Origin: Elusimicrobiota bacterium
Lineage (GTDB): Bacteria; Elusimicrobiota; Elusimicrobia; Elusimicrobiales; UBA9959
NCBI GenBank assembly: GCA_027340875.1
Contig: DAIENX010000007.1
Location: 10,750 to 74,749 of the forward strand
Length of the DNA: 64,000 nucleotides
Direction of reading: 5' to 3'
Shown in pieces: positions 5,683 through 26,434 of this stretch. Each line of letters starts with the position of its first letter. The stretch's first letter is position 1. Made by a program: the position numbers and the translations under genes. The notes beneath the pieces were generated by a model. It ran no database searches and was not told where the DNA came from. It saw nothing but the letters and a program-made list of their open reading frames with translations.

Positions 5683-5865
5683 TTTATCTCCTTGGGGCGG
5701 CCGGCGCCTGGCGGCGGCGCGGCGGCGTTACGCCCATATTCTATTCAATAGCCGCGGACCTTGTAAACTTGCCTTGCGCTTGCAGGCCCCGGGGAAAATA
5801 GATACAGTCTAGTTGCCCGCGGTCCGGGCCGGGAACTCCGTTCCCCCGCCGGGCCGCCTCCCGAT

Positions 5866-8803: not shown

Positions 8804-9676
8804 TCAGGACCGTGGCAGTTCCACAGTTCCGAATCTTCTTATGTAGTCCGCGTACACGCCGTCGCACTCGCCGCGCATCGCGCAGCCGCGGCAGGCGGGT
8901 ATACGCCTCCTCTCGGGAAGCTTCTTCCGGTCCGCTTTCCGGAAACGCCCCTTACCGGCCACGTACTGCCTGGCCTGGCGCTCGAACATCTCCACCCTGT
9001 CGCTGACCTCCCGGAAGAGGCACGGCACCGGCGCGTTTATCAGCGCGGCTTCCGGCTCCCCGGCGCGCAGGCATTCGATTATGACCGGCGCGGCGTCCTT
9101 CACCCTGGGGGTGTGCGGCATCTCCCCGGCCCGCTCTCCGACGTATATGATGTTCCACTTCGTCATCCCCAGGCGTCCCAGCAGGGTCCTGATCCGCGGC
9201 AGGCGCGAGACGTTCTTCCTGACCACCGTGGTATTGGCCGAGATGTTGCGGAAGCCGGCGGCGCGCAGATTGGCCACGCCCTTCAGTATGCGGGCGAAGC
9301 CGCCCTTCGTGCCGGTGAGCCCGTCATGGACGGAAGCCCTGTCGCCGTGCACCGAGAAGCGCACCTCGGTCACCCCCGCCTCCAGCAGGGCCGCGACGAA
9401 CTTCCGGTCGGCGAACATCCAGCCGTTGGTGGTCAGCATGCGCTGCCTGAACCCCAGCCTTTTCGCCGCCCCGAAGATCGCGAAAATATCCTTCCTCAGC
9501 GAGGACTCCCCCCCCAGCACGTCCACCGCCTCCGCGCCGGCCCGCCTGGCCTCCACCAGCTCCGCCAGTATGGCGCGGTGGCTCTTGTCCGGCGCCTTGC
9601 CGCGGTACTCCCTGTCCCAGCAGAAGCCGCAGGAGTTGTTGCAGGTGTAGCCGGTGATCAGCTTGAGCGACCTCAT
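8804..9676 (-). CDS. Radical SAM protein, CX2CX5CX3Y family paralogue
   Basis: The track ORF is 5'-extended. The internal ATG at 9676 forms an ATGA overlap with the upstream stop. N-terminus is MRSLKLITGYTCNNSCGFC (CX3CX2C). Also TTNG and SVHG..VHDGLTG. The C-terminal motif is CRGCAMRGECDGVYADYIRRFG. Confidence 0.85.
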   Translation of the reverse strand: MRSLKLITGYTCNNSCGFCWDREYRGKAPDKSHRAILAELVEARRAGAEAVDVLGGESSLRKDIFAIFGAAKRLGFRQRMLTTNGWMFADRKFVAALLEAGVTEVRFSVHGDRASVHDGLTGTKGGFARILKGVANLRAAGFRNISANTTVVRKNVSRLPRIRTLLGRLGMTKWNIIYVGERAGEMPHTPRVKDAAPVIIECLRAGEPEAALINAPVPCLFREVSDRVEMFERQARQYVAGKGRFRKADRKKLPERRRIPACRGCAMRGECDGVYADYIRRFGTVELPRS

Positions 9677-10602
9677 CGCGCCCCCCCGCGCTTCCGGCCG
9701 GCCGGGGCCTTCTTGAAGCAGAAATAGGCGTCCAGCGTCCTGCCTGACTTCCCGGCCCCGTCCCCGGCCGCGAACAGCACCGGCGCCATCGTCATGCCGG
9801 CGCGCCTCGCGTAGGCGACGAGCGAGAGTATCTTCTGCAGGGCCGCCGGGCGCCCTCCGGCGGCGTAAAGCCCGCAGATCTCCCGCATCGCCGGGGTAAG
9901 ATCGCTTATTCCGCCGGTCTCGTACACCTTGTAGGCCTTCCTCCGGCCGGAGCCGGCGCCGCGCATCTCGTAATAGAAGCACTTCTTTTCCAGCCCCAGC
10001 CCCGCCATCGTCCGCTTCTGCCAGGGCGGCACGCGCAGCCCGGCCGGCGCTTCCCGCCTGAAATAGAGCTTGAAGTCGCGGCCGCGGCCCGGCGTCAGGT
10101 CCAGACAGACGGCCGACAGCGCGTCCAGGTCCGCCTTGGACGGAAGCCTCTTCAGGCCGCAGGCCCCGGAAAGCAGGCCGGCCTTCAACCGCCCGTCATA
10201 GACGGGATAAAGTTCCTCGTGGTAGACCTTCAGCCGCGGGGCGTTCTGGCCGGTGCCCCAGTCCAGGCCCAGCGTGGTCTGATGGGCCGCGCCCAGCGCC
10301 GCGCCGGCCTTCAGGAAGCGTCCGAGCGCGGCCAGGTCGTAGCTGTCTCCGAAAGAAGCGGCATAGCGCATTATCACCCGGCCCAGCGCCCCGCGCTCGC
10401 CGAAATCGCTGACGCTGAAGCGGAAGGCCCCCGGATCGGAGGAGGAGACGCAGACGTCGAGCTTCTGGTTGAGCGGCAGCCATTCTCCCTTCACCCTGCC
10501 GGCGAACAGCCCGGCGATGGCGGCCAGGCCGGCCGGCGGGACCTGAGGGGCCCCCTCGCCGAGGAGCCTGAACAGGCCGGGCAGGGACCCCGCGCTCCGC
10601 AT
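9673..10602 (-). CDS. Hypothetical protein, possible ABBA (alpha-beta-beta-alpha) prenyltransferase-like fold
   Basis: Size is 309 aa. A strand-pair pattern with a basic residue then Y recurs: LGLDWGTG..PRLKVYHE, VCLDLTPGRGRDFKLYFR, YYEMRGAGSGRRKAYKVYE, LFAAGDGAGKSGRTLDAYFCF. This resembles NphB/CloQ/PatF-type proteins. The start overlaps the upstream stop by 1 nt. Function is inferred from sequence pattern only. Confidence 0.6.
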   Translation of the reverse strand: MRSAGSLPGLFRLLGEGAPQVPPAGLAAIAGLFAGRVKGEWLPLNQKLDVCVSSSDPGAFRFSVSDFGERGALGRVIMRYAASFGDSYDLAALGRFLKAGAALGAAHQTTLGLDWGTGQNAPRLKVYHEELYPVYDGRLKAGLLSGACGLKRLPSKADLDALSAVCLDLTPGRGRDFKLYFRREAPAGLRVPPWQKRTMAGLGLEKKCFYYEMRGAGSGRRKAYKVYETGGISDLTPAMREICGLYAAGGRPAALQKILSLVAYARRAGMTMAPVLFAAGDGAGKSGRTLDAYFCFKKAPAGRKRGGAR

Positions 10603-11624: not shown

Positions 11625-11628
11625 GTTC

Positions 11629-13392
11629 TCATCCTATTTCCCCGGACCCGAACCTGCCCAGGTACTCCGAGAAGACCCCGGGGCAGCGCCGGCAGGGGCC
11701 GCAGGAGGCGGGCCTCGTCCGGCCGAACTCGGCGGAGGAATTTATCTCATTATAATAAAATAAGCCGTCCCGGAAGACCAGCAGCCTGGCGGCCGGCGCC
11801 TGCCTGAAACTGGAAGCTCCGGGGAACACGCCGCGCAGCCTGTCCACCACGCAGTCCGGGAAGAGCGTGAACTGGGCGCGTCCGGAAGCCCGCGAGCGGC
11901 GGTAGGCCTCTACCAGGCTGGCATATGAGGGCAGCGCGCTCAGGTACCGTTTCTCCCCGCCCGGGCCCTGGTTGTCCGGGTAGTAATGCCAGACGGAAAG
12001 GCCCCAGTCGCCGGAGTAGGAGCCGACCAGCCCGCCCAGGGCCGGCAGCTCCCGCGCGTTCTTCTTCAGCGCCACCGCGTGGAAGCTGACGTCCAGGCGG
12101 TCTCGCTTGGCCAGCCTCTCCATCAGCGATATCAGCTTCCGCCAGGAGCCGGGCCGGCCGGTGACCGAGTCGTGCGTCTTCGCGGAGGCGCCGTATATCG
12201 GCAGCTCCAGCCCGGTCACGCCCAGCTTCTCCAGACCGTCGAGCGCCGCGTCGTCCAGCGCGAGGCCGGTGGTCCAGAGCCTGATCTTCCGGTAGCCGGC
12301 GCCGCGGCAGCGCCGCAGGAGCTCACCCAGCGCCGGGAACCTGTCGGCCCTGTCCCTGCCCCAGATATTCAGGGTCCTGTCCTTGTTCACCACGGAGAGG
12401 AACCTGCCCAGAACCGGAGACCCCGGGTCGAAGTCCAGCTTCTCCCGCGCCAGCCGGTGGTACTGCCTGCCGCGTATGACGCGCGAGTCGAAGGCGCAGG
12501 TGAAATCGCTGGCCCCGTACTGCAGGTCTATCGCCGCCAGGAAGTCCCGGCCGGCGGAGGGCTTTTCGCCGGCGAGGACCGCGTCGGGCATCACGAGGCG
12601 TCCGCCGCCTACGGCGTCGGAGTAGAGGTACCTGTTGCGCCTCAGCTCGTCTATGCGGCTGGCGGGCGGCAGGAAGCCCAGGTCGCCGCCCAGGTCCTCC
12701 ACGAGGACCCTGGTCGATAGCCCGGCCATGCGGGCGCGCACGGCTCTAACGGCCGAGACGAAGCCTTTCCGGTCCAGCAGGCCGCGCGGCGCGGCGCCGC
12801 CGGGATAGCCGGCCAGCGGCCTGGCCAGCGTGATGAAGGAGAGGCCGAAGCCGTCGAGCAGGGAGAGGACGGCGCCGAGCGACGCGGCGTTGACCCGCGT
12901 CACCGGCACGGCCGCGCCCACTTCCCTGATGCCGGCCGTTCTGGCCGCGCGCAGGCCGGCGAGGTTCTCCGCGAAGGCTTCGCGCCCGACGCCGCAGACG
13001 CGCGCGTAGGTCTTCCCGTCGGCGGCCGGCACCGAGACTATGGCGTAGCCCAGCCCCGCCGAGGCGAGGCCGGCGGCCAGGCCGGGGCGCAGCAAGCCGC
13101 GGCCGTTGGTGGACAAGCCTATGGTGGAGTAGCCCATGGCGCGGGCCGCCGCCACGAACCCCGGCAGGCCGGGGTGCGCGGCCGGCTCCCCGCCGGTGAA
13201 CTCCACGTGATCGAGGCCCATGGACCTGCCGTATTTGAGCCCGGCCAGCACCTTGCCGGCAGGGGCCAGGGCGCCGGACAGCCCGCAGGCGCAGTAGCCG
13301 CAGCGGTTGTCGCAGGCGTCGGAAACGGAAAGGGAAAGTCTGCTGAGGCTTTCCCCGGAAACGCCTCCCGTGGGAACGGCTTCTTCAGCCAC
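11629..13392 (-). CDS. Two-domain radical SAM protein: an intact N-terminal rSAM core plus a degenerate rSAM-like repeat ending in a Cys motif
   Basis: GTG start at 13392, an 8-nt overlap with the upstream gene. The N-terminal half has SDACDNRCGYC, FTGGEPAAHPGL and STNG. The C-terminal half repeats the barrel motifs (LWTTGLALDD, LPIYGASAKTHDSVTGRPGSW) but has no CX3CX2C. It ends in SCGPCRRCPGVFSEYLGRFG. Confidence 0.8.
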   Translation of the reverse strand: MAEEAVPTGGVSGESLSRLSLSVSDACDNRCGYCACGLSGALAPAGKVLAGLKYGRSMGLDHVEFTGGEPAAHPGLPGFVAAARAMGYSTIGLSTNGRGLLRPGLAAGLASAGLGYAIVSVPAADGKTYARVCGVGREAFAENLAGLRAARTAGIREVGAAVPVTRVNAASLGAVLSLLDGFGLSFITLARPLAGYPGGAAPRGLLDRKGFVSAVRAVRARMAGLSTRVLVEDLGGDLGFLPPASRIDELRRNRYLYSDAVGGGRLVMPDAVLAGEKPSAGRDFLAAIDLQYGASDFTCAFDSRVIRGRQYHRLAREKLDFDPGSPVLGRFLSVVNKDRTLNIWGRDRADRFPALGELLRRCRGAGYRKIRLWTTGLALDDAALDGLEKLGVTGLELPIYGASAKTHDSVTGRPGSWRKLISLMERLAKRDRLDVSFHAVALKKNARELPALGGLVGSYSGDWGLSVWHYYPDNQGPGGEKRYLSALPSYASLVEAYRRSRASGRAQFTLFPDCVVDRLRGVFPGASSFRQAPAARLLVFRDGLFYYNEINSSAEFGRTRPASCGPCRRCPGVFSEYLGRFGSGEIG

Positions 13393-14239
13393 GGCGCCTC
13401 CGTGCCACCAGGAATTTAACCATCTCCACCGCGTAAGACTTTACGAAGCCGGGGCAGGAGACGGAATGCGGGCAGGCGGAGCAGACCCCGGCGGGCTTCA
13501 CCCGCAGGCGCGGCTGGAAATCGGCCCCGGAGACCTCCCCGGCGGGGCAGGGCAGGCCCAGCTTCTCCGCCACGCAGAGCGGCACCGCCCCGCCGGCAGG
13601 CAGCATGCACCTGAGCCCCAGCTTCCGGCGGAAGCCGGCTATGGCGGAAAGCGAGCGCAGCGCGGCGGCCGCGTCGGGTATCAGCCAGCGCCTGGCCCGG
13701 ACGCGCGCGCAGTCCGGCTCCAGCAGAGAAAGCACGATGTCCTTAACTCCGTATTTCTTCCTCAGTTCGCGCACCAGGGCAGGCGCGGAGGACTGGTTGC
13801 CGGAATAGACCAGGAAATTGACGGCGGTCCTTATCCCGGCGCGGCGCAGGTTCTTCAGCGCGGCTTCCTTTTTGGCGAAGCCGCCTTTTACCCCGGCGAG
13901 AGCGTCGTATCTCTCCGGGGCCGATTCGAAGAAGCTGAGCACGACCTCGTCCAGGCCCGCCCCGGCCAGCTCCTCCAGGTAATCGGCGGAGGCCAGCCTG
14001 AGGCCGTTCGTCAGCAGCGCCACGTACTTGCCGCCCTTCTTCAGCCGGCGCACGAGGCCGGGCAGGCCGGGATGCAGCGTGGGCTCGCCGCCGGTCACGT
14101 TCACCCGCGCGGGCCCGGGCTCGGCGGCCAGGGCGGCGGCCTGCCTGGCGGCCCCGTCCTTCCGCTTCACGCCGCCGGCGTCGCAGAACAGGCAGTCCTG
14201 GTTGCAGCCGCAGGAAAGTACCAGGCGGGAGGTCTTCAT
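13385..14239 (-). CDS. Radical SAM protein, CX2CX5C family paralogue
   Basis: The internal ATG at 14239 makes an ATGA overlap with the upstream stop. MKTSRLVLSCGCNQDCLFC, VTGGEPTLHPGL, LTNG. C-terminal CSACPHSVSCPGFV. Confidence 0.8.
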   Translation of the reverse strand: MKTSRLVLSCGCNQDCLFCDAGGVKRKDGAARQAAALAAEPGPARVNVTGGEPTLHPGLPGLVRRLKKGGKYVALLTNGLRLASADYLEELAGAGLDEVVLSFFESAPERYDALAGVKGGFAKKEAALKNLRRAGIRTAVNFLVYSGNQSSAPALVRELRKKYGVKDIVLSLLEPDCARVRARRWLIPDAAAALRSLSAIAGFRRKLGLRCMLPAGGAVPLCVAEKLGLPCPAGEVSGADFQPRLRVKPAGVCSACPHSVSCPGFVKSYAVEMVKFLVARRRRG

Positions 14240-15186
14240 TTCGCTCTCTTCCGCCGCTTCGGCCCCGCCCCCGCGGCGGCGGGGCGGCACGGAACGAACT
14301 CGCCCCAGCCGAAAAGCTCCGGGTACTCGCGCCAGGGACCCTCGCACCTGTCGAAGAAGGCGCAGGACGGACACTTCGGCCCCTTGGCCTTGCCCTCGTT
14401 CAGCCTGTATTTACCGAAATCCTCTATCACGGTCCCCGCGTCGAAGATCTTGGTGCGCGGGATTATCGTCTCGGCCACGTAGTCCTCGTAGCCGCCCATG
14501 AAGCAGTACGGTATGGCCTCGGTCATAACGCGCAGGCCGGCGGCAAGGCCGATGTCCAGGCCGCGCTTCACGAAAGGCTCCATCACGGTCTTCTTCGGGA
14601 TCAGCCACCTGGCGTTCGCGGCGGCGCTGCCGAGTATGTGCACGAAGGCGAACTGGAACTGGTCCACGCCCAGCTTGGCCAGCAGCGTGGCTATGGCCGG
14701 CAGGTCCTGCGTGTTGGGTTTGGTTATCACGGTGTTGGTGATGACCCGGAACCCCGCCTTCTTCAGGTTCATTATCCCGGTCACGGTCTCGCGGAACGAG
14801 CCCCCGGCTCCGGTGAGGTAGTCGTGTATCTCCGCCCTGGACCCGTGCAGGGCCGGCGAGGCCTCGGTGGCCCCTGCCGCCGCCGCCTCGCGGCAGAACT
14901 CGGGGTAGCGGAACATGCGGCCGTTGCTCTGGATCTGGATGTTGCGGTAGCCGGTCTTCTTCGCCTCGCGCACTATCTGCAGGAATTCCTTGTGCAGCGT
15001 GGGCTCGCCGCCGGTCAGGACCAGCTCCCGGCCGCCGTCCTCGTAGCCGCGCCTCAGCTCCCTGCGCAGCTGCGCCATGTCCTTGGGCTGGTGCTTCTCC
15101 CGCTTCTTGCCCTGCACGCAGAACACGCACATGTTGTTGCAGCCGAAGGCGACTTTAAGGTCTATCCGCTTCAGGGGTCCGTTCAT
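14236..15186 (-). CDS. Radical SAM protein, CX2CX5CX3W family paralogue
   Basis: VAFGCNNMCVFC, LTGGEPTLHKEF, QSNG, ALHGSRAEIHDYLTGAGGSF. C-terminal CPSCAFFDRCEGPWREYPELFG. The ATG at 15186 makes an ATGA overlap with the upstream stop. An ATG at 15198 is an alternative start. Confidence 0.85.
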   Translation of the reverse strand: MNGPLKRIDLKVAFGCNNMCVFCVQGKKREKHQPKDMAQLRRELRRGYEDGGRELVLTGGEPTLHKEFLQIVREAKKTGYRNIQIQSNGRMFRYPEFCREAAAAGATEASPALHGSRAEIHDYLTGAGGSFRETVTGIMNLKKAGFRVITNTVITKPNTQDLPAIATLLAKLGVDQFQFAFVHILGSAAANARWLIPKKTVMEPFVKRGLDIGLAAGLRVMTEAIPYCFMGGYEDYVAETIIPRTKIFDAGTVIEDFGKYRLNEGKAKGPKCPSCAFFDRCEGPWREYPELFGWGEFVPCRPAAAGAGPKRRKRAK

Positions 15187-16394
15187 ATGAGGCTCCACAG
15201 GCGCCGCAGGGCGATCTTGGCCAGCAGCAGCACGTTGCCGCCGGACAGCGCCGCGGTGACGGCCAGGCCGGCGACTATCCAGAAGGCGAAGGGGCGCACG
15301 TGGAAGACCGGCACCCCCACGTCGTCCTTCGAATCGGCGGCTTTGCTCCTGACGTATTCCTTGAGGCCCTCCAGCTGTTCGGCGGTCAGGCCGTCGCGGT
15401 ACCGGTCGAAGCCGTACTTCTCCGCCAGCTCCGGCTCGGCCTCGCGCAGCTGCTGCAGGTATTCCTCGGAGATTATCATGCCCGGCGTTAGGCTGTCGAG
15501 ACAGACGCGGCGCGTGCCGGACAGCGCCAGGTGCCGGTCGGCGACGGCGTACAAAACGCCCCTGAACAGCATGAACTCCATGCTCATCACGAATCCGTAC
15601 AGCACCAGCCTGGCGAGGCTGAGCGTCTCGGGATTAAGCCTGGACGCGACGGCCAGGAGCAGCAGGCCGGCGAGCAGCGCGCGCGGACCGGCCTTACCGG
15701 CCAGCCAGCCGACGCGCCCGCCCAGCGCGAACATCAGGATGAAGAGGATGTTGCTGTTCACCTGGAAGCCGCCGGTATGCGCCGAGTTCCAGGCCGAGAC
15801 GAAGCTGAACAGCAGAGCGCTGAAGGAGAAGGTCACCAGCCGGCCCGGCTCCCTCGCCAGTCCGGCGGCGGCGGCGCGGGCGGCCGCCCAGCTCTTCCCG
15901 AAGGCTTTGATGGTCCCGTCCGAGAAGAGCAGGCCGAGCTGCTCCCTGGACATCTGCGCGAAATATACCGCCGCGGGCGGGACGAAGATGTTGACCAGCA
16001 GCGACAGCACCAGCGCCACCGGCGCCCAGCTGGCGTACGAGATGACCATCGGTAGCGCCGCGCAGAGCAGGGCGAAGAGCTTGGCGTCGCCCGCCGGCCA
16101 CACCGCGGTCTTCCAAAGTATTATCCCAGCCAGCAGGCCGAGGGCCGCGTTCTCCAGCAGCACCAGGTAGTACCTGTAAACGAAGAACGGCTCCCAGAAT
16201 GGGCCGTGCAGCCCGTACCTGGTCCCGGCCACGCTGACGGACAGCATGACCGCGGCGGCGGCCAGGACGGCAGCCCCGCCGCGGGCCAGGCTCCTGTTGC
16301 GTATCTTGCCGCAAAGGTCGTCCTCCCTGACCACCCTGAGCAGCAGGACGGTCAGGTACAGCGTCAGCAGCAGGCTTACTATCGGCAGGTACAT
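15183..16394 (-). CDS. Polytopic membrane protein, A24 (prepilin/TadV-type aspartic peptidase)-like N-terminal region with a soluble insert
   Basis: Multiple hydrophobic helices. EDDLCGKIRNR resembles the first catalytic-Asp motif (D..x..IPN). WPAGDAKLFALL resembles the G-x-GD-x-KL second motif. A charged region of about 70 aa (EEYLQQLREAEPELAEKYGFDRYRDGLTAEQLEGLKEY) precedes the last helix. Confidence 0.65.
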   Translation of the reverse strand: MYLPIVSLLLTLYLTVLLLRVVREDDLCGKIRNRSLARGGAAVLAAAAVMLSVSVAGTRYGLHGPFWEPFFVYRYYLVLLENAALGLLAGIILWKTAVWPAGDAKLFALLCAALPMVISYASWAPVALVLSLLVNIFVPPAAVYFAQMSREQLGLLFSDGTIKAFGKSWAAARAAAAGLAREPGRLVTFSFSALLFSFVSAWNSAHTGGFQVNSNILFILMFALGGRVGWLAGKAGPRALLAGLLLLAVASRLNPETLSLARLVLYGFVMSMEFMLFRGVLYAVADRHLALSGTRRVCLDSLTPGMIISEEYLQQLREAEPELAEKYGFDRYRDGLTAEQLEGLKEYVRSKAADSKDDVGVPVFHVRPFAFWIVAGLAVTAALSGGNVLLLAKIALRRLWSLI

Positions 16395-16398
16395 AGTT

Positions 16399-17328: not shown

Positions 17329-17330
17329 AG

Positions 17331-19122: not shown

Positions 19123-20408
19123 GCGCTCCTCGCCGCGTTGAACATCCGCTGCACCAGGTTCACGGCTCCGGAGAAGCCCAGGAAAGGCTCCGGCCGCAGC
19201 GCGTGGTACCTGTAGGACGGGAAACCCAGGTCCATGCCGGGCAGCCCCAGCAGGGCCGAGCGCCGGCCTACGCTGCTGGATACCAGCAGGTCGCAGCGCC
19301 CGCCGGAGAAAAGCTCCTCTATGGCCCGCCCGTAGGCGAGCACGGGGAAATCCCTCAGCACCGGTCTCCCCGGGAAAGCCGCCTCGGCCGAGGCCCATTT
19401 GCCTCCGGAGCAGGTCAGGAACACTCCGGCCACGCCCATGCCCAGCTCGGCCGCGAAGGCGCAGACCGCCTTTCCCAGGTACGGGTCGCCGGTGAAGCAG
19501 AGCCTTTTCCCGGCCAGCGCGCCGCCCACCGCGGTGCGGGCCAGCGAATGGGCCCCGGAGAGCTCCTCGGCTATGATCGCGTCCGCTTTCACGGCGGAGA
19601 TTCCGGCGGCGCCGGCGGCGGCTTTCAGCCAGGCCGCCGAGGCGGCCAGCCCCAGCGGCAGCTCCAGCTCCAGCAGCCTGGCGCCGGTCCTGCGGGCCAG
19701 CGTCGCGGCCGCGCCGCGCGCGTAAGGCAGGGAGATGATCAGGCCGGCCTGCTCCGCTTCCTTCAGGGAGGCGTAATCGCTCCCTCCGGGCCAGGCGCAG
19801 ACCAGGTCCAGCCCGGCCAGCGCCAGCATGCGGCGCAGCTCCGCGAGGTTGCCGGTCTGGTCGCCCTCGTTGCGGTCCATGAAATGCCCCACTACGGCGA
19901 CCTTGCCGCGCCGGCCGGCGCCCTTCTTCAGCGGCATGTCCGCGGCCATCCTTTCCAGCGCCAGCGCGTAGCCGTCCAGGTAGTCGAAGTCCAGCGCGTT
20001 GGCCGAGGCGCTCACCACCCTGGTGCCGCGCCGCCCCGTCAGCGAGGCGGCCAGCTTCCCGTAATCCCTCCCGGTGAGCGTCATGACCGGCAGCGAGGAG
20101 AGCAGCACCACGCCCGCGCGGCCGCACAGCGCGTCGGCGCGGGCCTCGGCGCCGGAGCTGTCGCCGGCTATTATCTCCCCGGCGTGGGAACCGGTATGCA
20201 GCACGCGGCTGTCGCCGCGGCAGTCCAGCAGCGTGGAGAACAGGTCGTGGGAGCCGTGCACGCACTCGGCCTTGCGCGTCACGCAGTCCGTGCCGTCCAC
20301 CACCGCGTAGGCGTCCGAGACGGCGTTGACGGCGAGGTACAGACCCGTCAGGAAGGACGGCGTGCAGCTCTCTCCCCTGTCCGGGGTATCAGTTCTCTTT
20401 TCTGCCAT
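19119..20408 (-). CDS. Nitrogenase component-1-type oxidoreductase family protein (NifD/NifE/BchN-like)
   Basis: Size is 429 aa. The N-terminal Cys pair SC(15)TPSFLTGLYLAVNAVSDAYAVVDGTDC(42)V has spacing like the BchN-type cluster ligands. The overall layout resembles three Rossmann-like domains (KVAVVGH, LISLPYARG, KRLCFTGDP). The start overlaps the upstream fusion gene by 20 nt. Where the third Cys ligand is expected the sequence reads LSSLPVMT. Confidence 0.8.
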   Translation of the reverse strand: MAEKRTDTPDRGESCTPSFLTGLYLAVNAVSDAYAVVDGTDCVTRKAECVHGSHDLFSTLLDCRGDSRVLHTGSHAGEIIAGDSSGAEARADALCGRAGVVLLSSLPVMTLTGRDYGKLAASLTGRRGTRVVSASANALDFDYLDGYALALERMAADMPLKKGAGRRGKVAVVGHFMDRNEGDQTGNLAELRRMLALAGLDLVCAWPGGSDYASLKEAEQAGLIISLPYARGAAATLARRTGARLLELELPLGLAASAAWLKAAAGAAGISAVKADAIIAEELSGAHSLARTAVGGALAGKRLCFTGDPYLGKAVCAFAAELGMGVAGVFLTCSGGKWASAEAAFPGRPVLRDFPVLAYGRAIEELFSGGRCDLLVSSSVGRRSALLGLPGMDLGFPSYRYHALRPEPFLGFSGAVNLVQRMFNAARSA

Positions 20409-22605
20409 AGCTAGCGAAATCCGACCCGCAGACGGCCAGGATGGTCTCCAGCGTCCTGCAGGCCCCGGCGAAGCCGGGCCTGAACATGTCCAGCGAGACC
20501 TGCGCCTTGCCGGCGTCGGAGACCCGGTAGTCGCAGGAGAAATCGCTCCAGACCGCGGAGATCGCCGGGGAAGCCAGCCTTCGGCGCAGCTCGGCCTCTC
20601 CGGAGAACGCCGCCGTTCTCATATTGAAGGCGGACAGCGGGCCGGAGAACCTCTTCAGGGCCTTCTTCTCCGGGGCGTATACCAGCAGCTCCAGGCCGAA
20701 GCCGGCCTCCGCCAGGAAGGCGGCCGGCGGCACCCCGGCGGAGCGGGCCGGCGTGAATATCCGCTCCAGGTCCGCCTCGCCGGCGACGAAAGCTATCCTC
20801 TTGCCGGCCGCGCGCGCCTTCAGCGCCTTCCATTCCCCAGCGCTGGCGGCCATCGCCGCCCGAACGGTACCGGCCGCCGCCTTGGAGCGGCCGGCCAGCG
20901 CGGCCGCCTCGAGCAGCCAGGCGGCCGTGGCGGAAAATCCGTAGGGCGAGGGCGGGCGCCTGAGACGCTTCTTCCAGCGCCCGCTGAAAGCGGCCTCCAG
21001 CCTGTCGTAGATGAAAGAATCGCTGAGCAGGGCGCTGCCGGCCGACCGCAGGGCCTCGAGGGACTCCCCGTCGTATTCCGGCAGCAGCCAGAACGCCTTT
21101 ACGCCGGCGGAAGAGAGTATGCCGTCCAGCTCCTTAAGGCCGGCCCCGCCGTAGCCGAGCAGAACGGCAGCGTTGGCGGGCAGCCGGAAGCGGCGCCGGC
21201 CGTCCCGCCTGGCGTAGGCGCGGAAGAAGCCCAGCAGCTCGCCGGGCACGGAGCAGCCGTCCAGGCAGGTGGAGCTGACCACCACCGGCACGCCGCTGGC
21301 CTTCTCGGCCTCGCCGGCCAGCTTCCGCACGTCCTCGCCCATAGCGTAAGGTACGCAGCCGTTGGTCATGAAGATATAATCCGGCCTTCCTCCGGCCAGG
21401 TCCGCGGCGATATCCCTTATGCGGCCGCCGCTGCCGAGTATCACTTCCCCTGTGCCCAGCGCGCTGGAGCTCCTGGTGGAGCCGGCTTCCGGGTGCAGCT
21501 CGCTGCCGGGCAGCAGGCTGGCGGGACCGCGCAGGAACGGGACCTTCTCGCTCTCCTCCAGCCGCTCCTGGCTGTAGGCGCATTCCCTGTCCTCGTGGGC
21601 CAGGAAAGCCTGCCGCCCGGTGTAGCGTACCAGCCCGGTGCCGGAGAAGACGGCGTCCGAGAAGAAGCGGCGCCAGCCGTCGCCGGCGCCCGAGGGCGGC
21701 CTGGCGGGCGAGGAGATCTTGAAGGACGCCCCGCAGGCCTCCGGCGCGTGGCAGGCAGCGGGCACGTCGGGCGGGGCGGCCGGAAGCACGCGCGGCTTCT
21801 TCCCGCGGCCGGAGAGCAGCGGCAGCAGTATCCTGCCGTCCACCGGCCGCGGCAGGGAGCCGGCGGCATCGGAAGCGTCCAGGCCGGCCTTTATCCTCCT
21901 GACCGCCGCGGCGAAAGGCGAGCGCGGGGCCAGGCGCACCACCGCGGCCCCGGCGGCTTCGGCCTCCCTGACCGCCGGGTCCAAAGGACAGCGGGCCAGT
22001 ATGCCGGCCTTTATCAGCGCGGCGAACTTGTCCACGGCGCCGCCGCGGCCGCCGTCCGCGCCGTTGGCCACCAGCCCCATCAGGCCGGCGCCGCTGCCGG
22101 CGTGCACGGTCATCGCGCGGGCTATGTTGTTGGCGGCGTAGAGTGACATCAGGTCTTCCGAGACCACTATCAGCACCTTGCGCCCGAAGCCTTTTCTCAG
22201 CGGCACGGCGAAGCCGCCGCAGACTATGTCGCCCAGCACGTCGAAGATCACCGCGTCGTAGTCGGCGGCCACCTTCTCGCGGGCGGATTCCAGCAGCTCG
22301 AAGGTCTTCAGCAGGCCCATGCCGGCGCAACCCTCTCCCGGAGCGGGGCCGCCGGCCTCCAGGCAGTCCACGCCCCTGCCTGTCCTGTAGATCAGCTTCT
22401 CCAGCGTCGGGCGGCCGCCGCGCAGCGCCTCCACCACGGTCGGGATGCCCTCGCCGCCTGTCAGCAGCAGCGCGGAATCGCTCTTCGGGTCGCAGCCCAC
22501 GTGCAGGACCCGCTTGCCCTCCATGGCGTACAGCTCGCTGAGGTTGGCTGCTATGGTGGATTTGCCTATCCCGCCCTTGCCCAGGATGACGATGCGCTCA
22601 GACAT
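20389..22605 (-). CDS. Fusion protein: NifH/BchL/CfbC-type Fe-protein ATPase (N-terminal) plus a nitrogenase component-1-like (NifK/BchB-like) domain (C-terminal)
   Basis: The N-terminal ~250 aa carry the P-loop ILGKGGIGKST, switch I GCDPKSDS, and both 4Fe-4S Cys ligand contexts (GEGCAGMG and DVLGDIVCGGFAVP). A Pro/Ala/Arg-rich linker contains CHAPEAC. The C-terminal ~400 aa carry component-1-like motifs (DYIFMTNGCVPYAMGEDV, VPVVVSSTC, KRIAFVAGE). Confidence 0.9.
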   Translation of the reverse strand: MSERIVILGKGGIGKSTIAANLSELYAMEGKRVLHVGCDPKSDSALLLTGGEGIPTVVEALRGGRPTLEKLIYRTGRGVDCLEAGGPAPGEGCAGMGLLKTFELLESAREKVAADYDAVIFDVLGDIVCGGFAVPLRKGFGRKVLIVVSEDLMSLYAANNIARAMTVHAGSGAGLMGLVANGADGGRGGAVDKFAALIKAGILARCPLDPAVREAEAAGAAVVRLAPRSPFAAAVRRIKAGLDASDAAGSLPRPVDGRILLPLLSGRGKKPRVLPAAPPDVPAACHAPEACGASFKISSPARPPSGAGDGWRRFFSDAVFSGTGLVRYTGRQAFLAHEDRECAYSQERLEESEKVPFLRGPASLLPGSELHPEAGSTRSSSALGTGEVILGSGGRIRDIAADLAGGRPDYIFMTNGCVPYAMGEDVRKLAGEAEKASGVPVVVSSTCLDGCSVPGELLGFFRAYARRDGRRRFRLPANAAVLLGYGGAGLKELDGILSSAGVKAFWLLPEYDGESLEALRSAGSALLSDSFIYDRLEAAFSGRWKKRLRRPPSPYGFSATAAWLLEAAALAGRSKAAAGTVRAAMAASAGEWKALKARAAGKRIAFVAGEADLERIFTPARSAGVPPAAFLAEAGFGLELLVYAPEKKALKRFSGPLSAFNMRTAAFSGEAELRRRLASPAISAVWSDFSCDYRVSDAGKAQVSLDMFRPGFAGACRTLETILAVCGSDFASYGRKEN

Positions 22606-23617
22606 GTCCCACCGCCTCTCCCGCGGCCGGCCGGGCGCGCAGTATCCGGGCCGCGGCGGCCGCGGGGATGGGGCGCAGTTCGCCGTCGCCGAACCTGTCG
22701 AGGTAGGCCCCGAAGACCCCGGCGCAGCGGTCCGCCAGCGCGCAGCCCGAGCAGCGCTCCGTCCTCGTCCGCTTCAGCGGCGGGACCACGCTCTTCTTAA
22801 CCGAGAGCACGTTCTCCTTCAGGTAGGAGCGCCCGCGCTCCAGCACGAGCCGCGGGGAGAAGAGCAGGTCGTTGGAGAAAGGGGCCAGCGGGCCCAGCGC
22901 GCAGAAAGGGGCCCCGGAGACGACCAGGCGGGCGCCGTTGGCGCGTATGGTCCCGGCGGCTGAACGCACGGCGCGCGCGAAGTCCGGCAGCCTCACGGTC
23001 AGGCTCCCGTAGGAGGAGCGCACGTTCCCCCACGGTATCAGCTGCGACATCATGTAGACCCCCGGCCGGCCGCGGGAGAAGACGTACTTCGCTATGTCCG
23101 CCGTTCTCCCGGAGTTGAGGGAGCAGACCACGGTGTGGCACATGAACAGCTTGAGCTTCCCGAAGCGTTCCACGTTCGAAAAGACCTTTTCGACCGTGGA
23201 GAAGGCGGACGGCATCCGCGTGACGGCGCGCGCCAGTCCCTCTTCGTTCCAGTGCACAGAGAGGCAGAGTTCGTCGATGTCCGGCAGCAGCCGTGCCGCC
23301 GCCGCGGGGTCGGCCAGTCCCGTGCCGTCGGTGGTGACCTGCACCGAGTAGCCCAGCAGCTTGGCTATGCGCAGTATGCGCCCGAACTGCGGATGCACGG
23401 TGGGCTCCCCGCCCAGCAGCGTCAGGTGCCCGGCGCCGCCGCTCCGGAGCTTCTTCATTATCGAGCAGGCCTCCGCGAGCGGCATGAAGCCGCCGCCGGA
23501 GCGCAGGCTGCGCGCCTCGCAGCAGAAGACGCAGCGGCGGCGGCAGACCTTGGAGATCCGCAGCTCGGCCCGCTCCCCGGCGGCGCCGGGGGCGCTCAGT
23601 AGGTCCTCTCCGTGCAT
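22598..23617 (-). CDS. Radical SAM protein, CX2CX5CX3F family paralogue
   Basis: ISKVCRRRCVFCCE, LLGGEPTVHPQF, TTDG, SVHWNEEGLARAV. C-terminal CSGCALADRCAGVFGAYLDRFG. The start is taken at ATG 23617 (22-nt overlap with the upstream gene). Its stop overlaps the NifH-fusion start by 8 nt. Confidence 0.8.
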   Translation of the reverse strand: MHGEDLLSAPGAAGERAELRISKVCRRRCVFCCEARSLRSGGGFMPLAEACSIMKKLRSGGAGHLTLLGGEPTVHPQFGRILRIAKLLGYSVQVTTDGTGLADPAAAARLLPDIDELCLSVHWNEEGLARAVTRMPSAFSTVEKVFSNVERFGKLKLFMCHTVVCSLNSGRTADIAKYVFSRGRPGVYMMSQLIPWGNVRSSYGSLTVRLPDFARAVRSAAGTIRANGARLVVSGAPFCALGPLAPFSNDLLFSPRLVLERGRSYLKENVLSVKKSVVPPLKRTRTERCSGCALADRCAGVFGAYLDRFGDGELRPIPAAAAARILRARPAAGEAVGHV

Positions 23618-24327
23618 ATGTTGTACTTCACGTAATTGGGCGCGCGGTCCTCGCGCACCCGGCTGTCCACGGCCCGCTGCTTCCGCGGCCTGGCCCCGTC
23701 CGGCCTGAGCGCGGCGTAGTCCACGTGCGTGTCCGTCTCGTTCTCCTTGAGGTCCCAGACCGCGCATTTCAGCCCGAGCGCCATCATCCCGGAGACGGTC
23801 TCCTTTATCCTGCCCTGGTTGGCCTTCAGGCGCAGCGTGTGCATCTCTATCCTAGTGCCGGGAAAGGACTTTATGTTCTTTATGGCCTTCAGCAGGGCCG
23901 CGTAGCTGCCTTTCTTCCTGGTCACGGCGTCGTGCACGGCCGCGTCCGGCCCGTAGACCGGCAGCAGGAAGGCGTTGACCCCGGCCGCGACCAGCGCGGC
24001 CGTCAGCCGGCGGCTGCGCAGCTTGACGCCGTTCGACATCAGCTCTATATAGGCGAAGCCTTCCTTCACTCCCATCCTGACCACGGACTCCAGCAGCCAC
24101 GCGGGGGCCATCGTGGGCTCGTCGCCGCCGAGGCAGAGCCGCCTGACTCCGCGCCGGCGGAGCACCCGCATCAGCGCGAGGAAGCGTATCAGCACCTCGC
24201 GCCACCGCTCCTCGGTGAAGGTGAAGGAGGTCTTGTGCGGGTGCCTGTTCCGCTGGCAGAAGACGCAGTCGATGTCGCAGCCGAACGGGAACGCCAGCAG
24301 CAGCTTGTCCTCCTTCCTGGCGTTCAT
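23596..24327 (-). CDS. Short radical SAM protein without a C-terminal Cys motif
   Basis: The ATG at 24327 makes an ATGA overlap with the upstream stop. MNARKEDKLLLAFPFGCDIDCVFC (CX3CX2C), LGGDEPTMAP, MSNG, PVYGPDAAVHDAVTRKKGSY. Size is 243 aa. Confidence 0.75.
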   Translation of the reverse strand: MNARKEDKLLLAFPFGCDIDCVFCQRNRHPHKTSFTFTEERWREVLIRFLALMRVLRRRGVRRLCLGGDEPTMAPAWLLESVVRMGVKEGFAYIELMSNGVKLRSRRLTAALVAAGVNAFLLPVYGPDAAVHDAVTRKKGSYAALLKAIKNIKSFPGTRIEMHTLRLKANQGRIKETVSGMMALGLKCAVWDLKENETDTHVDYAALRPDGARPRKQRAVDSRVREDRAPNYVKYNICTERTY

Positions 24328-25310
24328 GCGGCCTTCACCTCCGTTATGGGACGGAAGAAAGGGGCCTGCTCCGGGAAGGCCTCGAGATACTTCCGGAAGA
24401 TGCCTCCGCAGGAGCGCCGCAGCGCGCAGCGGCCGCAGGACTTCAGATAGACGCGCCGCCGCGTCGGGCGCAGCGAGACCGTCTCCTTCAGGCCGGCGCG
24501 CCCGCCGGGGAGCGCCGCCCTCTCCACGGTCAGCCGCGGCGAGTAGTAGAGGTCGTTGGAAAGGTCGTAATGACCGTTCAGCGAACAGGCCGGCGCGCCG
24601 AAGAAGCGCAGCGTCACGCCGAACAGCGCGGCCTGCTCCCGCAGGTCCCCTATGCGCCGGCCTATGGCGGTGAGGTCCGGAGCCAGCGAGGCGTAGTCCT
24701 CGCAGGCGCCGCCCTCCGGGGCCGGGTTGGAGATCATGTAATGCCGGACGAACCCAGAGCGGGAGACCAGGCGCAGGATGTCCGAGACCAGCTTGAAGTT
24801 CTTTTTGACGGCCACGGTGTTGACCATCAGGAACAGCCTGCCGCCGCCGGCCTTGCCCAGGTTGTCCAGCGCGGCCATGGCGTCGTCGAAGCTGCCCTTC
24901 CTGCCGGTCAGCGCGTCGTGTATCTTGGCCGTAGGTCCGTGGCAGGAGAGCATGGCCTCGTCCAGCAGCGGCGCGGTACGGCGGACGAAAGCGGGATCGG
25001 CGAAGGCGAGGCCGTTGGTGGTGACGCTGGTCCTGAACCCAAGCGCCCTGGCCGCACCGAGGGCGGCCGGCAGCGCGGCGCACAACGACGGCTCTCCTCC
25101 GGTGAAAGTGACGTGGGAGAAGCCGGCCCTGCGTTTCTCGCGCAGGATGCCTGCTATCTCCGACCCCGTCAGGTCCAGCGAGCCGAACCGGCGCAGCCTG
25201 TTCCGCTCGCTGCAGAACAGACAGCTGTTCTCGCAGGTGTAGGAAACGTGTATCTCCAGCCGCTCCACCGCGGCTTTCTTCGCTCCAGCGCCGTGTACCG
25301 TTCGGCTCAT
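24324..25310 (-). CDS. Radical SAM protein, CX2CX5CX3F family paralogue
   Basis: The ATG at 25310 makes an ATGA overlap with the upstream stop. HVSYTCENSCLFC, FTGGEPSLCAAL, TTNG, SCHGPTAKIHDALTGRKGSF. C-terminal CGRCALRRSCGGIFRKYLEAF. Confidence 0.85.
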   Translation of the reverse strand: MSRTVHGAGAKKAAVERLEIHVSYTCENSCLFCSERNRLRRFGSLDLTGSEIAGILREKRRAGFSHVTFTGGEPSLCAALPAALGAARALGFRTSVTTNGLAFADPAFVRRTAPLLDEAMLSCHGPTAKIHDALTGRKGSFDDAMAALDNLGKAGGGRLFLMVNTVAVKKNFKLVSDILRLVSRSGFVRHYMISNPAPEGGACEDYASLAPDLTAIGRRIGDLREQAALFGVTLRFFGAPACSLNGHYDLSNDLYYSPRLTVERAALPGGRAGLKETVSLRPTRRRVYLKSCGRCALRRSCGGIFRKYLEAFPEQAPFFRPITEVKAA

Positions 25311-26434
25311 GCGACGCACCTCCCGGAACGGACCGGCTTCAACGCCGAGAAACCCCTGGCCATCACGGTCCATATCCTGGCTCCGCGGCAGGCCGGGCCC
25401 AGCCGGCAGCGTCGGCAGGCGGAACCCTTCACGGTCAGCCTCTCCGCTATGAAGAACTCGGCCACCTTCATCAGGCCGGCCCTTGGCGTTATCTTTTTCA
25501 CGGCCCTCCGCTTCTCCGGCAGGCAGGCCGGCGCCGGGACCGTCTTAAGGGAACCTTCCGCCCGCAGCAGCTCGAGGTCCGAGCAGAACTGTGCCATCAC
25601 GCAGGACGCGCACCGCGCCCCCTTGCAGTGCATCTCCTCTCCGGCGTACAGGAAGGCCTCCAGCGGCCGGCGCATCCCCCGCACCTCGTCCATCAGCTTG
25701 CCGGGGTGCTGTATATACCGCTCGTTGCCCTCCAGCACTGCGGCGGGGAAGCGGTTCGTCCAGACGTGGGCGTTGACGGATTCGGAGAAGCGGAACACCT
25801 TTTCCAGCACCTTCCTCTTGGAAGCCGGGTCATAGGAAAGTTTCTTCCAGTTCTCCCACGCCCTGCCGAAAGGTATCAGGTTCAGCAGGTCGTACTCGTC
25901 CACGCCGAGGCGGTGCAGCAGGCCGACTATCTCGCGGACGGAGTCGGCGTTAAGCCTGTTCACCACGATGTCGCTGCTGACTATCAGGCCCGGCACCTTC
26001 TTGGCGTTGGCGATGGCCAGCAGGGTCTGCGCGAAAGCGCCGGGGACCCCGACCAGCGCGTCGTGCTGCCCGGAGGTGGCCCCGTGCACGGAGAACGTTA
26101 TCTCGGTGAGCCCGGCGGCCACAGCGCGCTTCAGAAAGCCATCGTAGCAGAACATCCGCCCGTTGCTGATGGCCTGCACGTGGGTATAGCCGAGCTTCCT
26201 CGCCTTCGCCACTATGGCCGTGAATTTGGGGTGTATCGTGGGCTCTCCGCCGCTCAGCACCACCCGGCGGCAGCCCTCCGCCCGGCCCCGCCTCAGGTCG
26301 GCCTCTATCTCTCCGAGCGGCAGATGTTCGCCGCAGATGGAGTCCGCGTCCAGACAGAAAAGGCAGCGGTTGTTGCAGGCCCTGGTCAGCCTGACCCATT
26401 TCCGCTTTTCCGGGGCGGCGGTTCTTTCCGTCAT
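25307..26434 (-). CDS. Radical SAM protein, CX2CX5C family paralogue with an additional CX4CX2CX5C motif
   Basis: The track ORF is 5'-extended. The ATG at 26434 lies 4 nt after the upstream TAG. LTRACNNRCLFC, LSGGEPTIHPKF, ISNG, SVHGATSGQHDALVGVPGAF. PFGRAWENWKKLS is shared with 18235-19122. Also CKGARCASCVMAQFC and CRRCRLGPAC. Confidence 0.85.
   Translation of the reverse strand: MTERTAAPEKRKWVRLTRACNNRCLFCLDADSICGEHLPLGEIEADLRRGRAEGCRRVVLSGGEPTIHPKFTAIVAKARKLGYTHVQAISNGRMFCYDGFLKRAVAAGLTEITFSVHGATSGQHDALVGVPGAFAQTLLAIANAKKVPGLIVSSDIVVNRLNADSVREIVGLLHRLGVDEYDLLNLIPFGRAWENWKKLSYDPASKRKVLEKVFRFSESVNAHVWTNRFPAAVLEGNERYIQHPGKLMDEVRGMRRPLEAFLYAGEEMHCKGARCASCVMAQFCSDLELLRAEGSLKTVPAPACLPEKRRAVKKITPRAGLMKVAEFFIAERLTVKGSACRRCRLGPACRGARIWTVMARGFSALKPVRSGRCVA

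Follow-up and report, generated by a model that had tools for sequence, protein, structure and literature searches.

The HXS system is an antiphage system of Enterobacteria in which an HxsC-HxsD complex has been seen by pull-down, and HxsC-HxsD together with HxsB is proposed to put a covalent modification on an HxS repeat of HxsA (PMC13128918). The tail of the enterobacterial HxsC reads C342-x2-C345-x5-C351-TGYF and is described by the authors as a second 4Fe-4S site or domain; a C342A/C345A double mutant had a lower efficiency of HxsA cleavage and kept partial function (PMC13128918). For Group VI-like clusters of nitrogenase-like (Nfl) genes, tetrapyrrole chemistry has been proposed by Meheust et al. 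(10.1101/765248) and in a 2026 review (PMC13474568), and neither mentions Hxs genes or a peptide.

The window (the whole 64,000-nucleotide stretch that was analysed) carries an array in which an earlier note had described nine tandemly expanded radical SAM (rSAM) paralogues with a truncated SPASM-like C-terminal signature. All nine open reading frames (ORFs) were confirmed on the minus strand, each with a CX3CX2C motif and a match to Pfam Radical_SAM (E 1e-12 to 1e-25). Gene starts were trimmed to plausible sites, and the positions by which the note named the genes are their low (stop-codon) ends. The paralogues are A (8804..9676; CX3CX2C at 9620-9643, upstream Cys219, C-terminal motif CRGCAMRGECDGVY at 8852-8893), B (13385..14239; VPLC at 13574-13582, motif CSACPHSVSCPGFV at 13442-13483), C (14236..15186; IPYC228, motif CPSCAFFDRCEGPW at 14332-14373), D (16399..17328; VPLC, motif CAACTLKRICAGLY at 16486-16527), E (17331..18245; LPLC, motif CSGCRVRDYCGGVW at 17379-17420), F (18235..19122; VPLC, motif CRACSKLAVCGGVY at 18283-18324), G (22598..23617; APFC, motif CSGCALADRCAGVF at 22712-22753), H (24324..25310; APAC, motif CGRCALRRSCGGIF at 24396-24437), and I (25307..26434), whose C-terminal module is duplicated. 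Module 1 of paralogue I is CX4CX2CX5C (25571-25612 plus C270), and module 2 consists of PAC304 and CRRCRLGPACRGAR (25376-25417). Paralogue J (11629..13392, minus strand) is two fused HxsC-like units. Its N-terminal unit has CX3CX2C, and its C-terminal unit lacks it and carries FPDC and the variant CGPCRRCPGVF (11671-11703), located where it had been claimed. An eleventh HxsC-like gene, overlooked in the earlier note, is K (23596..24327, minus strand, 243 aa), an rSAM core that lacks the C-terminal Cys module and has a 92% identical orthologue at locus L004. Overlaps of a few bases between neighbouring genes of the array are operon-like. Of the further motifs said to be shared, (T/S)GGEPT and HD..TG hold only approximately (GGESS stands in A, and HD is missing from D and G). 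The genes are true paralogues, but a recent duplication is not supported, as the copies are 21-37% identical to one another and several have orthologues of 46-64% identity in other genomes. Paralogue C is a widely conserved “core” type, and its orthologues of about 60% identity adjoin HxsB and HxsA4 in other phyla.

NCBIfam assigns the best matches of all nine paralogues to HxsC4 and HxsC, with HxsC4 on top for most; none passes the curated cut-off of either HxsC (TIGR03977; 267.9, best score 106) or HxsC4 (NF038332; 500, best score 126). In paralogues B, E, and F the profile match extends to the last profile positions, reaching 289 of 292 in the HxsC profile for E. The best tblastn matches of E on plasmids are hxsC genes annotated by PGAP, over 97% of the length of E. 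When aligned with HxsC of S. meliloti and Aminobacter, FPLC and CLNCSSQKTCGGFFEW / CQDCRLRSDCGGFFEW of these proteins share the columns of the window motifs. The cysteines of Klebsiella HxsC (101/105/108, 317 in YPLC, and 342/345/351) match the positions of the residues mutated in the published work (PMC13128918). Along with J and K, the nine genes belong to the HxsC lineage within the radical SAM enzymes, of which they are old and differentiated members. Since no window paralogue comes near the 500-bit HxsC4 cut-off, the array represents further, unnamed subfamilies.

The nine C-terminal motif strings quoted earlier were found verbatim near the C-termini and follow CX2CX5C-x-G-x-(mostly aromatic). 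Of the 181 six-frame ORFs that reach 100 aa or more, 12 contain C..C.....C: the nine paralogues, two genuine SPASM proteins, and an antisense artefact. In composition-preserving shuffles, only 0.12 of the nine would be expected to carry it, which excludes chance for the motif. The cysteines are positionally homologous, falling in the same MAFFT columns in eight paralogues; all ten modules share the three Cys columns once module 2 of paralogue I is used, and of the two CX2CX5C motifs in that gene the note had quoted the second, a valid homologue. Family-wide, glycine stands at +2 in 249 of 266 motifs, and the position of the fourth SPASM cysteine is mostly aromatic, as had been noted (W/F/Y in 176 of 266). 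An invariant P-x-C cysteine, which the earlier note also passed over, lies 40-50 residues upstream of CX2CX5C. The four cysteines are invariant across the ten window modules, and C228, C272, C275, C281, and G283 vary little or not at all among 77 sequences. Because this fourth cysteine is invariant, the array modules likely have a complete four-Cys site. In module 1 of subfamily I, P-x-C is lost and a conserved cysteine at -5 is gained, in four of four orthologues.

We consider it unlikely that the module represents a SPASM or twitch domain cut down to CX2CX5C with an aromatic residue for the fourth ligand, holding a three-Cys cluster with an open iron (compare MoaA) or forming a new substrate-binding variant. 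C-x2-C-x5-C-x-G does resemble the SPASM CX2CX5CX3C segment locally, the +2 glycine is common to both, and some AhbD proteins retain just CX2CX5C and one distal cysteine (PMC10452713). Full-length Foldseek matches (265-348 aligned columns) include the SPASM/twitch proteins SuiB, SkfB, and CteB, and the topology predicted between P-x-C and the motif, short strands followed by a helix, would be compatible with SPASM. However, Pfam SPASM gave no match to the nine full proteins, nor, at E<=10, to their C-terminal segments taken alone. Alignments by hhalign with the window's own SPASM proteins and by PDB profile search covered only the core and left the module unmatched. The AlphaFold2 model of paralogue C is confident in this region (pLDDT 94-97 over residues 231-300). 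For a model of the domain alone, itself confident, no Foldseek match went below E=3.4. Both the invariant upstream cysteine and the replacement cysteine of subfamily I argue for a four-Cys site. The module is the standard HxsC tail, not SPASM minus a ligand. A distinct variant is likewise not supported, as the module is the usual C-terminus of PGAP-annotated HxsC, and clustering at 50% identity gives about 2,100 clusters that carry it. What the earlier note observed is confirmed, and its interpretation is partly supported.

Four-Cys motifs with CX2C are often zinc-binding. A structural zinc site, or another non-cluster site, that stabilises the C-terminal barrel cap would also accommodate the partial function retained by HxsC C342A/C345A, and none of the Fe-S-specific profiles matches the module. 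We regard this as improbable, less likely even than a reduced SPASM domain: the authors of the HXS study annotated a second 4Fe-4S domain (PMC13128918), the spacing and the +2 glycine agree with SPASM cluster-binding segments, and auxiliary clusters are the rule within this branch of the superfamily (PMC10452713). In every copy but K, the four invariant cysteines would most probably bind a single, putative auxiliary Fe-S cluster.

The array shares its strand, with close spacing, with three Hxs genes. HxsA4 (28359..28655, minus strand) is a His-Xaa-Ser repeat peptide of 98 aa (NF038313, 64.4 bits against a cut-off of 55) that comprises a leader, a hydrophobic stretch, and the tail SHASHGSHGSHSSHGSHGSHGSHGSHGQW; about ten SHG repeats form its end. 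HxsB, a radical SAM/SPASM maturase (28675..30144, minus strand), scores 489.4 bits against a TIGR03978 cut-off of 370, and an HxsD-like protein of 153 aa (30110..30571, minus strand) falls just below that of TIGR03976 (48.2 bits against 50). Within the array lie a NifK/BchN-like Oxidored_nitro protein of 429 aa (19119..20408, minus strand), the second subunit of a nitrogenase-like enzyme, and a 738-aa protein (20389..22605, minus strand) in which a NifH-like ATPase is fused to a NifD-like Oxidored_nitro domain; the two are Group VI-like. The gene of a polytopic membrane protein of 403 aa (15183..16394, minus strand), with no family match, recurs immediately upstream of the C-type gene at related loci.

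HxsA4 is a candidate substrate of the array, and modification of its repeats is the most likely function suggested by this analysis. The N-terminal CX3CX2C cluster of each HxsC-like enzyme cleaves SAM, and by analogy with the HXS system the diverged enzymes would most likely act on the His/Ser repeats of HxsA4 with radical modifications that differ or follow one another. The earlier proposal, in which either one scaffold undergoes many radical steps or many related sites are targeted, agrees with the presence of an HxS-repeat peptide in the operon. The ATP-dependent nitrogenase-like reductase (NifH-NifD fusion and NifK-like protein) and HemN-like enzymes may supply reduction and methylation. 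Because the array is HxsC-type and its operon is shared with an HxS-repeat peptide, the reductase may act on a peptide and not on a tetrapyrrole. Taken as a whole, an HxsC-lineage array with four-Cys auxiliary-cluster tails that carries out multi-step radical modification of the peptide, with help from the reductase and HemN-like proteins, is in our judgement rather probable. Several observations count against it, namely the scores below the HxsC and HxsC4 cut-offs, the missing N-terminal domain of about 95 residues, the merely lowered activity of the HxsC double mutant (PMC13128918), the many Group VI-like loci free of Hxs genes within 10 kb, and the number of repeats, which at other loci does not follow the number of paralogues.

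Also counting against it, and suiting the published idea of tetrapyrrole chemistry, are four genes within or beside the operon, of which three are HemN-like and one is a BchE-like rSAM gene. On that reading, the nitrogenase-like enzyme could join the rSAM array in making or reducing a tetrapyrrole-type cofactor, with HxsD, HxsB, and HxsA4 as a separate neighbouring cassette; we hold this to be possible but doubtful. By score, the NifH part is closest to CfbC and the NifK-like part to BchN/BchB. Numerous Group VI-like loci, eight Myxococcota-type ones among them, have no HxsC-like gene within 10 kb, and HxsB is found at only about five. On the other hand, the scan of operon ORFs turned up no gene for core tetrapyrrole biosynthesis, and HemN-like proteins can be class C methyltransferases acting on peptides. 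The array genes are full-length homologues of HxsC, the sole characterised HxsC is implicated in peptide modification, and the three Hxs genes are closely spaced, on the same strand, with an array of overlapping genes. The Hxs and Nfl neighbourhood also recurs in four distant lineages. Such loci (L016, L021, L030, L038) come from Deltaproteobacteria, a Methanosarcinales MAG, and Elusimicrobia. HxsB lies immediately next to nitrogenase-like genes in L021, L030, and L038 (512, 527, and 397 bits), an HxsA4-type peptide lies beside them in L021 and L038, and L016 has HxsB-like and HxsD-like ORFs. A C-type orthologue adjoins HxsB in L001 and two HxsA4 genes in L002. These neighbourhoods are consistent with peptide modification by the array.

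Compared with SPASM/twitch enzymes (anSME, PqqE, SuiB, SkfB, BtrN, AhbD), the window proteins share the superfamily branch by core similarity, a Cys-rich C-terminal extension past the partial barrel, and a local CX2CX5C-x-G. However, the module has four conserved cysteines instead of seven to eight, its fourth cysteine lies upstream and not downstream, and profile and domain-level structure matches are both absent. The Group VI clusters that Meheust et al. (2020) described from groundwater Elusimicrobia likewise have a NifH/D/K-like set and many flanking rSAM genes, some with HemN_C, and genomes named in that study appear among the related loci retrieved; that study left its rSAM genes unclassified, and in the window NifH and NifD are fused. 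The “rare” HxsC4/HxsA4 variant (NF038332, NF038313) is approached through the peptide, which passes the HxsA4 cut-off, through HxsC4 as the top model for most paralogues, and through L030, where a 325-bit HxsC4-like gene adjoins HxsB and Nfl genes, although the best window score is only 126 against 500. HxsC (TIGR03977) of the enterobacterial HXS system shares with the array the CX3CX2C core, P-x-C, and the C-x2-C-x5-C-x-G-aromatic-aromatic tail in the same columns, and both systems co-encode HxsB, HxsD, and an HxS-repeat protein. The window paralogues are only 24-31% identical to HxsC, score far under the family cut-off, and all lack the N-terminal domain of canonical HxsC. The HXS partner is a periplasmic HxsA with a peptidoglycan-binding domain, whereas the window partner is of HxsA4 type with membrane-anchored SHG repeats. 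Finally, the HXS system has a single HxsC, while the window has eleven copies embedded among nitrogenase-like genes.

Between 1.5 and 34.9 kb, the window contains 19 rSAM-domain genes. A minus-strand operon (GC about 0.65-0.71) spans ~30.6 kb down to at least ~7.4 kb, and minus-strand genes go on to 1.5 kb, two HemN-like rSAM genes among them. After spurious upstream extensions were trimmed off, nine related rSAM paralogues were placed on the minus strand: A (8804-9676), B (13385-14239), C (14236-15186), D (16399-17328), E (17331-18245), F (18235-19122), G (22598-23617), H (24324-25310), and I (25307-26434). Most adjacent genes of the array overlap by a few bases, and gene lengths called independently in a syntenic, 94% identical contig (L004) agree with those in the window. 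All nine products match Radical_SAM (PF04055; 47.6-90.2 bits, cut-off 29.5) and have the CX3CX2C core, and the C-terminal strings quoted for them in the earlier note were found verbatim in each. Among 181 six-frame ORFs with a length of 100 aa or more, 12 contain the pattern C..C.....C (the nine paralogues, two true SPASM proteins, and one antisense artefact), while shuffling predicts that 0.12 of the nine would carry it. Thus, the claim that nine rSAM genes share a C-terminal motif is real. The artefact arises because the antisense of the SHG repeats (27073-28446, plus strand) reads CEPCEPCEP..., giving a spurious long ORF; such ORFs are a trap for motif scans in sequence of such high GC.

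Two further HxsC-like genes lie in the array, both on the minus strand. Gene J (11629-13392) is a two-unit fusion, the second unit of which lacks CX3CX2C and ends FPDC...CGPCRRCPGVF. Gene K (23596-24327) encodes a 243-aa HxsC-like core that ends before the Cys module; because it is kept at 92% identity in L004, it is probably functional rather than a pseudogene. Housekeeping genes occupy 35000-64000 (PhoH/PIN, BamA, LpxD, an ABC transporter, RelA/SpoT, and a sulfatase-family protein); therefore, the operon is chromosomal in an Elusimicrobia-like genome and on no obvious mobile element.

Assignment of the paralogues to a named family came from several comparisons. In the search for an existing HMM family, HxsC4 (NF038332) and HxsC (TIGR03977) ranked first among NCBIfam models for nearly all paralogues, below their cut-offs, and B, E, and F matched the HxsC profile through to its end. 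When protein E was compared with plasmids by tblastn, PGAP-annotated hxsC genes led the matches, with 97% of its length covered. The C-terminal module (an upstream P-x-C and the motif CX2CX5C-x-G-x-aromatic, the last residue being mostly aromatic) aligns column for column with three annotated HxsC proteins. In Sinorhizobium and Aminobacter HxsC, F-P-L-C and CLNCSSQKTCGGFFEW or CQDCRLRSDCGGFFEW share columns with the P-x-C and motif of the window. Enterobacterial HxsC has its cysteines at 101/105/108 (core), 317 (YPLC), and 342/345/351 (CDECTQKSSCTGYF), a numbering that agrees with the positions mutated in the HXS study of 2026, which describes the C-terminal module as the "second 4Fe-4S domain" (PMC13128918).

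A profile restricted to the module matched 2,100 cluster representatives at E<=1e-3 among 1.84 billion proteins. In the top 150 representatives, which contain 266 motifs, Gly occupies position +2 in 249 and W/F/Y occupies +4 in 176; therefore, as judged by these frequencies, the whole signature characterises HxsC-type enzymes as a family, even at the position where an aromatic residue stands in for Cys. The earlier note had proposed the motif as a distinct variant, and this is not supported, as the trait already belongs to a named family and about 2,100 representatives match the module. Many of the module-profile matches (P0121-P0270) are proteins of 600-1300 residues with two to four fused HxsC-like units, each bearing its own CX3CX2C and CX2CX5C-x-G-W, and gene J is a two-unit example of such proteins. 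On a Clostridium perfringens plasmid (L009), a 304-aa rSAM protein (4986-5900) with FPPC and CVGCDRNQKCGGIYNEY has the same HxsC-type module, and its gene is clustered with an NHLP-type precursor, DUF6365 proteins, MtnK, and MetK; the HxsC-type module is therefore used in non-Hxs peptide clusters too.

The window paralogues differ from HxsC and HxsC4 in falling below both curated cut-offs, and from HxsC in having no ~95-residue N-terminal domain. Whole-protein scores of the nine against TIGR03977 are 41.6-106.4 bits (cut-off 267.9), the best scores against NF038332 are 126.4 bits (F) and 125.7 bits (C) against a cut-off of 500, and in alignment with annotated HxsC the N-terminal domain is absent from all window paralogues. 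By these measures they fall outside HxsC as strictly defined. Identity among them is only 21-37%, while C, D, H, and I have orthologues of 46-64% identity in other genomes. We regard the paralogues as old, differentiated subfamilies; this low mutual identity and the several closer orthologues elsewhere rule out a recent tandem duplication.

SPASM domains have seven or eight Cys and two clusters, and twitch domains are a truncated form with three or four Cys and one cluster (PMC10452713). The earlier note had described the C-terminal segment as a truncated SPASM/twitch domain, for which the comparisons gave no support beyond the rSAM core. Pfam SPASM (PF13186) matched neither the full proteins at E<=0.01 nor the isolated C-terminal segments at E<=10, while the window HxsB does give a weak PF13186 match. 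Sequence homology was rejected: hhalign of a 77-sequence profile against the two SPASM proteins of the window aligned only the rSAM core, and a profile search of PDB sequences was confined to the core as well. Structural comparison gave no clear support either. A full-length AF2 model (pLDDT 94.8) gave core-dominated Foldseek matches, SkfB, BlsE, and MoaA among them, and a model of the domain alone (pLDDT 87) gave nothing below E=3.4. In place of the SPASM set of seven to eight Cys with CX2CX5CX3C and a downstream Cys, only four are conserved, none of them downstream. The four Cys do fit the loose definition of a twitch domain (PMC10452713), and the local CX2CX5C-x-G resembles a SPASM segment, so the module could loosely be named twitch-like. 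Because every homology test run was negative or uninformative, SPASM ancestry of the module is possible but unsupported.

The fourth conserved Cys stands in a P-x-C context 40-50 residues ahead of the motif (C228 in protein C) and is nearly invariant in the 77-sequence alignment of paralogues and homologues. In the ten window modules, this Cys is invariant, as are the three Cys of the motif and its +2 Gly. Gene I has its entire C-terminal module duplicated in tandem: module 2 retains P-A-C and CX2CX5C-x-G, and module 1 has lost P-x-C and gained a new Cys five residues ahead of the motif (CX4CX2CX5C). Both features are kept in three orthologues from other genomes. As patterns of conservation, the four invariant Cys and the compensating Cys in module 1 argue for a four-ligand rather than a three-ligand site. 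The proposal of a missing fourth ligand is rejected, and that ligand is probably supplied by the upstream cysteine. The exception to the four-Cys count is subfamily I (window 25307-26434; L010, L015, L016), with eight conserved Cys through its duplicated module. Enzymes of this subfamily may hold two auxiliary clusters, which would equal the SPASM number but by another route.

Other Hxs components are encoded upstream in the operon on the same strand as the array. They are a marginal HxsD-like gene (30110-30571; 48.2 bits, cut-off 50), HxsB (28675-30144; 489 bits, cut-off 370), and a 98-aa HxsA4-type precursor (28359-28655; 64.4 bits, cut-off 55) that ends SHASHGSHGSHSSHGSHGSHGSHGSHGQW. The precursor has a leader with conserved FL-x-SEEGKI, a hydrophobic segment, and ~ten SHG repeats ending in QW, and the same build recurs in L021, L038, L002/L003, and L092-L094. 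A metagenome scan with HxsB found 12 loci, mostly short, which confirmed the HxsD-HxsB-HxsA4 order and are little informative on linkage to nitrogenase-like genes. A one-to-one relation between repeat and paralogue number was rejected, since other loci have 13-25 repeats and two or three HxsC-like genes in the available contig sequence. PADLOC, with a 2023 library older than the HXS paper, gave only generic viperin-core matches for HxsB, HxsD, HxsA4, two paralogues, and the nitrogenase-like fusion.

Several further proteins are encoded in and around the array. Three HemN/HemZ-like rSAM genes (1497-2960 and 2960-4372, minus strand; 5866-7365, plus strand) score below family cut-offs, and L018 has three HemN-like genes as well, placed upstream of its nitrogenase-like genes. 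An M20 peptidase (4492-5682, minus strand) flanks the array, and a BchE-like B12-binding rSAM protein (31506-32984, minus strand) and a PapB-like rSAM/SPASM maturase (33420-34907, plus strand) are encoded just beyond HxsD. A 403-aa polytopic membrane protein (15183-16394, minus strand) without a Pfam or NCBIfam match lies immediately upstream of the C-type gene in L004 and L005, with weaker matches in L010, L018, and L028. Its sequence includes A-G-D-A-K-L, which recalls GxGD aspartyl peptidases, and our guess is that it might be a GxGD-type leader peptidase. A secreted HEAT-repeat protein (7373-8779, minus strand) and a membrane-anchored protein (27316-28365, minus strand) have a Cys-rich C-terminal domain in common, in which the cysteines align (BLASTP E=5e-7); both end near C-A-P-L and have no family match. 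At E<=5, Pfam gave nothing for the 403-aa membrane protein, a 309-aa protein, or the Cys-rich 349-aa protein.

The function of Group VI nitrogenase paralogues is still unknown according to a 2026 review (PMC13474568). Hxs genes or peptides are mentioned neither in the original description of Group VI clusters nor in that review (PMC13474568), and no paper in the searchable literature contains "His-Xaa-Ser" and "nitrogenase" together. In the middle of the array are a Group VI-like NifH-NifD fusion (20389-22605, minus strand; 738 aa) followed by a NifK/BchN-like gene (19119-20408, minus strand), here called Nfl. Full-length fusions resembling it are present in Elusimicrobia, Deltaproteobacteria, and Myxococcota MAGs (L010-L037). 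Scanning species-representative genomes with the fusion gave 80 loci. Motif-bearing HxsC-like genes lie within 10 kb of Nfl in L010, L011, L013-L016, L018, L019, L028, L030, L038, and L075. Where tested, HxsB within that distance exceeds its cut-off in L021, L030, and L038 (512, 527, and 397 bits), and L016 has an HxsB-like ORF (264 bits to the window HxsB). Next to HxsB, L021 encodes an HxsA4 peptide (64.6 bits) and L038 an HxsA4-like one. These Hxs-Nfl loci derive from Elusimicrobia, two Deltaproteobacteria MAGs, and one Methanosarcinales MAG. About 50 of the 80 are ordinary NifH/CfbC-type loci of methanogens and Firmicutes that have no Hxs genes, and none occur within 10 kb in eight Group VI-like loci of Myxococcota. 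Therefore, Hxs-Nfl linkage recurs in different phyla without being universal. Homologues of the C-type paralogue number more than 1,900, and identity among the best 120 is 55-94%. Because its orthologues directly adjoin HxsB in L001 (Deltaproteobacteria) and HxsB with two HxsA4 genes in L002 (Parcubacteria), C is the core HxsC partner in a system of HxsA4 type, one that also occurs by itself.

In the enterobacterial HXS system, HxsA processing needs HxsB, HxsC, and HxsD, all three, and an HxsC-HxsD complex was seen by pull-down (PMC13128918). HxsA gains 8 Da on one HxS repeat (SHRSS), and the authors propose the HxsC-HxsD core as the installer (PMC13128918). Building on the rSAM core, shared module, and co-encoded Hxs components found here, the SAM cluster of each window paralogue would be used for hydrogen abstraction in the repeat region (His/Ser/Gly) of HxsA4. 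At the C-terminal four-Cys site, an auxiliary cluster would transfer electrons or contact the substrate, and different or successive modifications would be installed by different HxsC-like subfamilies. The Nfl enzyme would perform low-potential, ATP-driven reduction of an intermediate, and HemN-like proteins may serve as methyltransferases. That the Group VI-like reductase and up to eleven HxsC-type enzymes form one pathway converting HxsA4 to an extensively modified peptide, or to a cofactor or metallophore derived from a peptide, is a tentative proposal, which we consider rather unlikely as a whole. If true, the reductase would be the first nitrogenase homologue to act on a ribosomal peptide and not on N2, a tetrapyrrole, or a small sulfur compound. 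A tetrapyrrole substrate is a serious rival, and it leaves the HxsC family assignment untouched. With the peptide reading, the Group VI question gains a testable candidate substrate (98 residues, ~ten SHG repeats) as against an unspecified tetrapyrrole.

The observation in the earlier note was confirmed and its interpretation in part, with the motif now a family trait of HxsC and the ligand claim set aside. The cysteine signature alone is not new, being the tail of the named family HxsC; the novelty lies in what the entire array consists of, mainly HxsC homologues with HxsB, HxsD, and HxsA4. The "extensive suite of radical SAM proteins" beside Group VI paralogues is, in the window and partly in several related loci, mainly HxsC homologues. 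Many subfamilies, and fusion proteins of two to four units, have arisen among HxsC-type enzymes, which points to a broader, unexplored radical chemistry on His/Ser-rich repeats. The array joins HXS peptide maturation and antiphage defence to nitrogenase-like enzymes, fields unconnected in the searchable literature. As in the characterised HXS system, HxsB and HxsD are co-encoded with a His-Xaa-Ser repeat protein, and the complete array represents a novel form of that system, combined with a nitrogenase-like enzyme.
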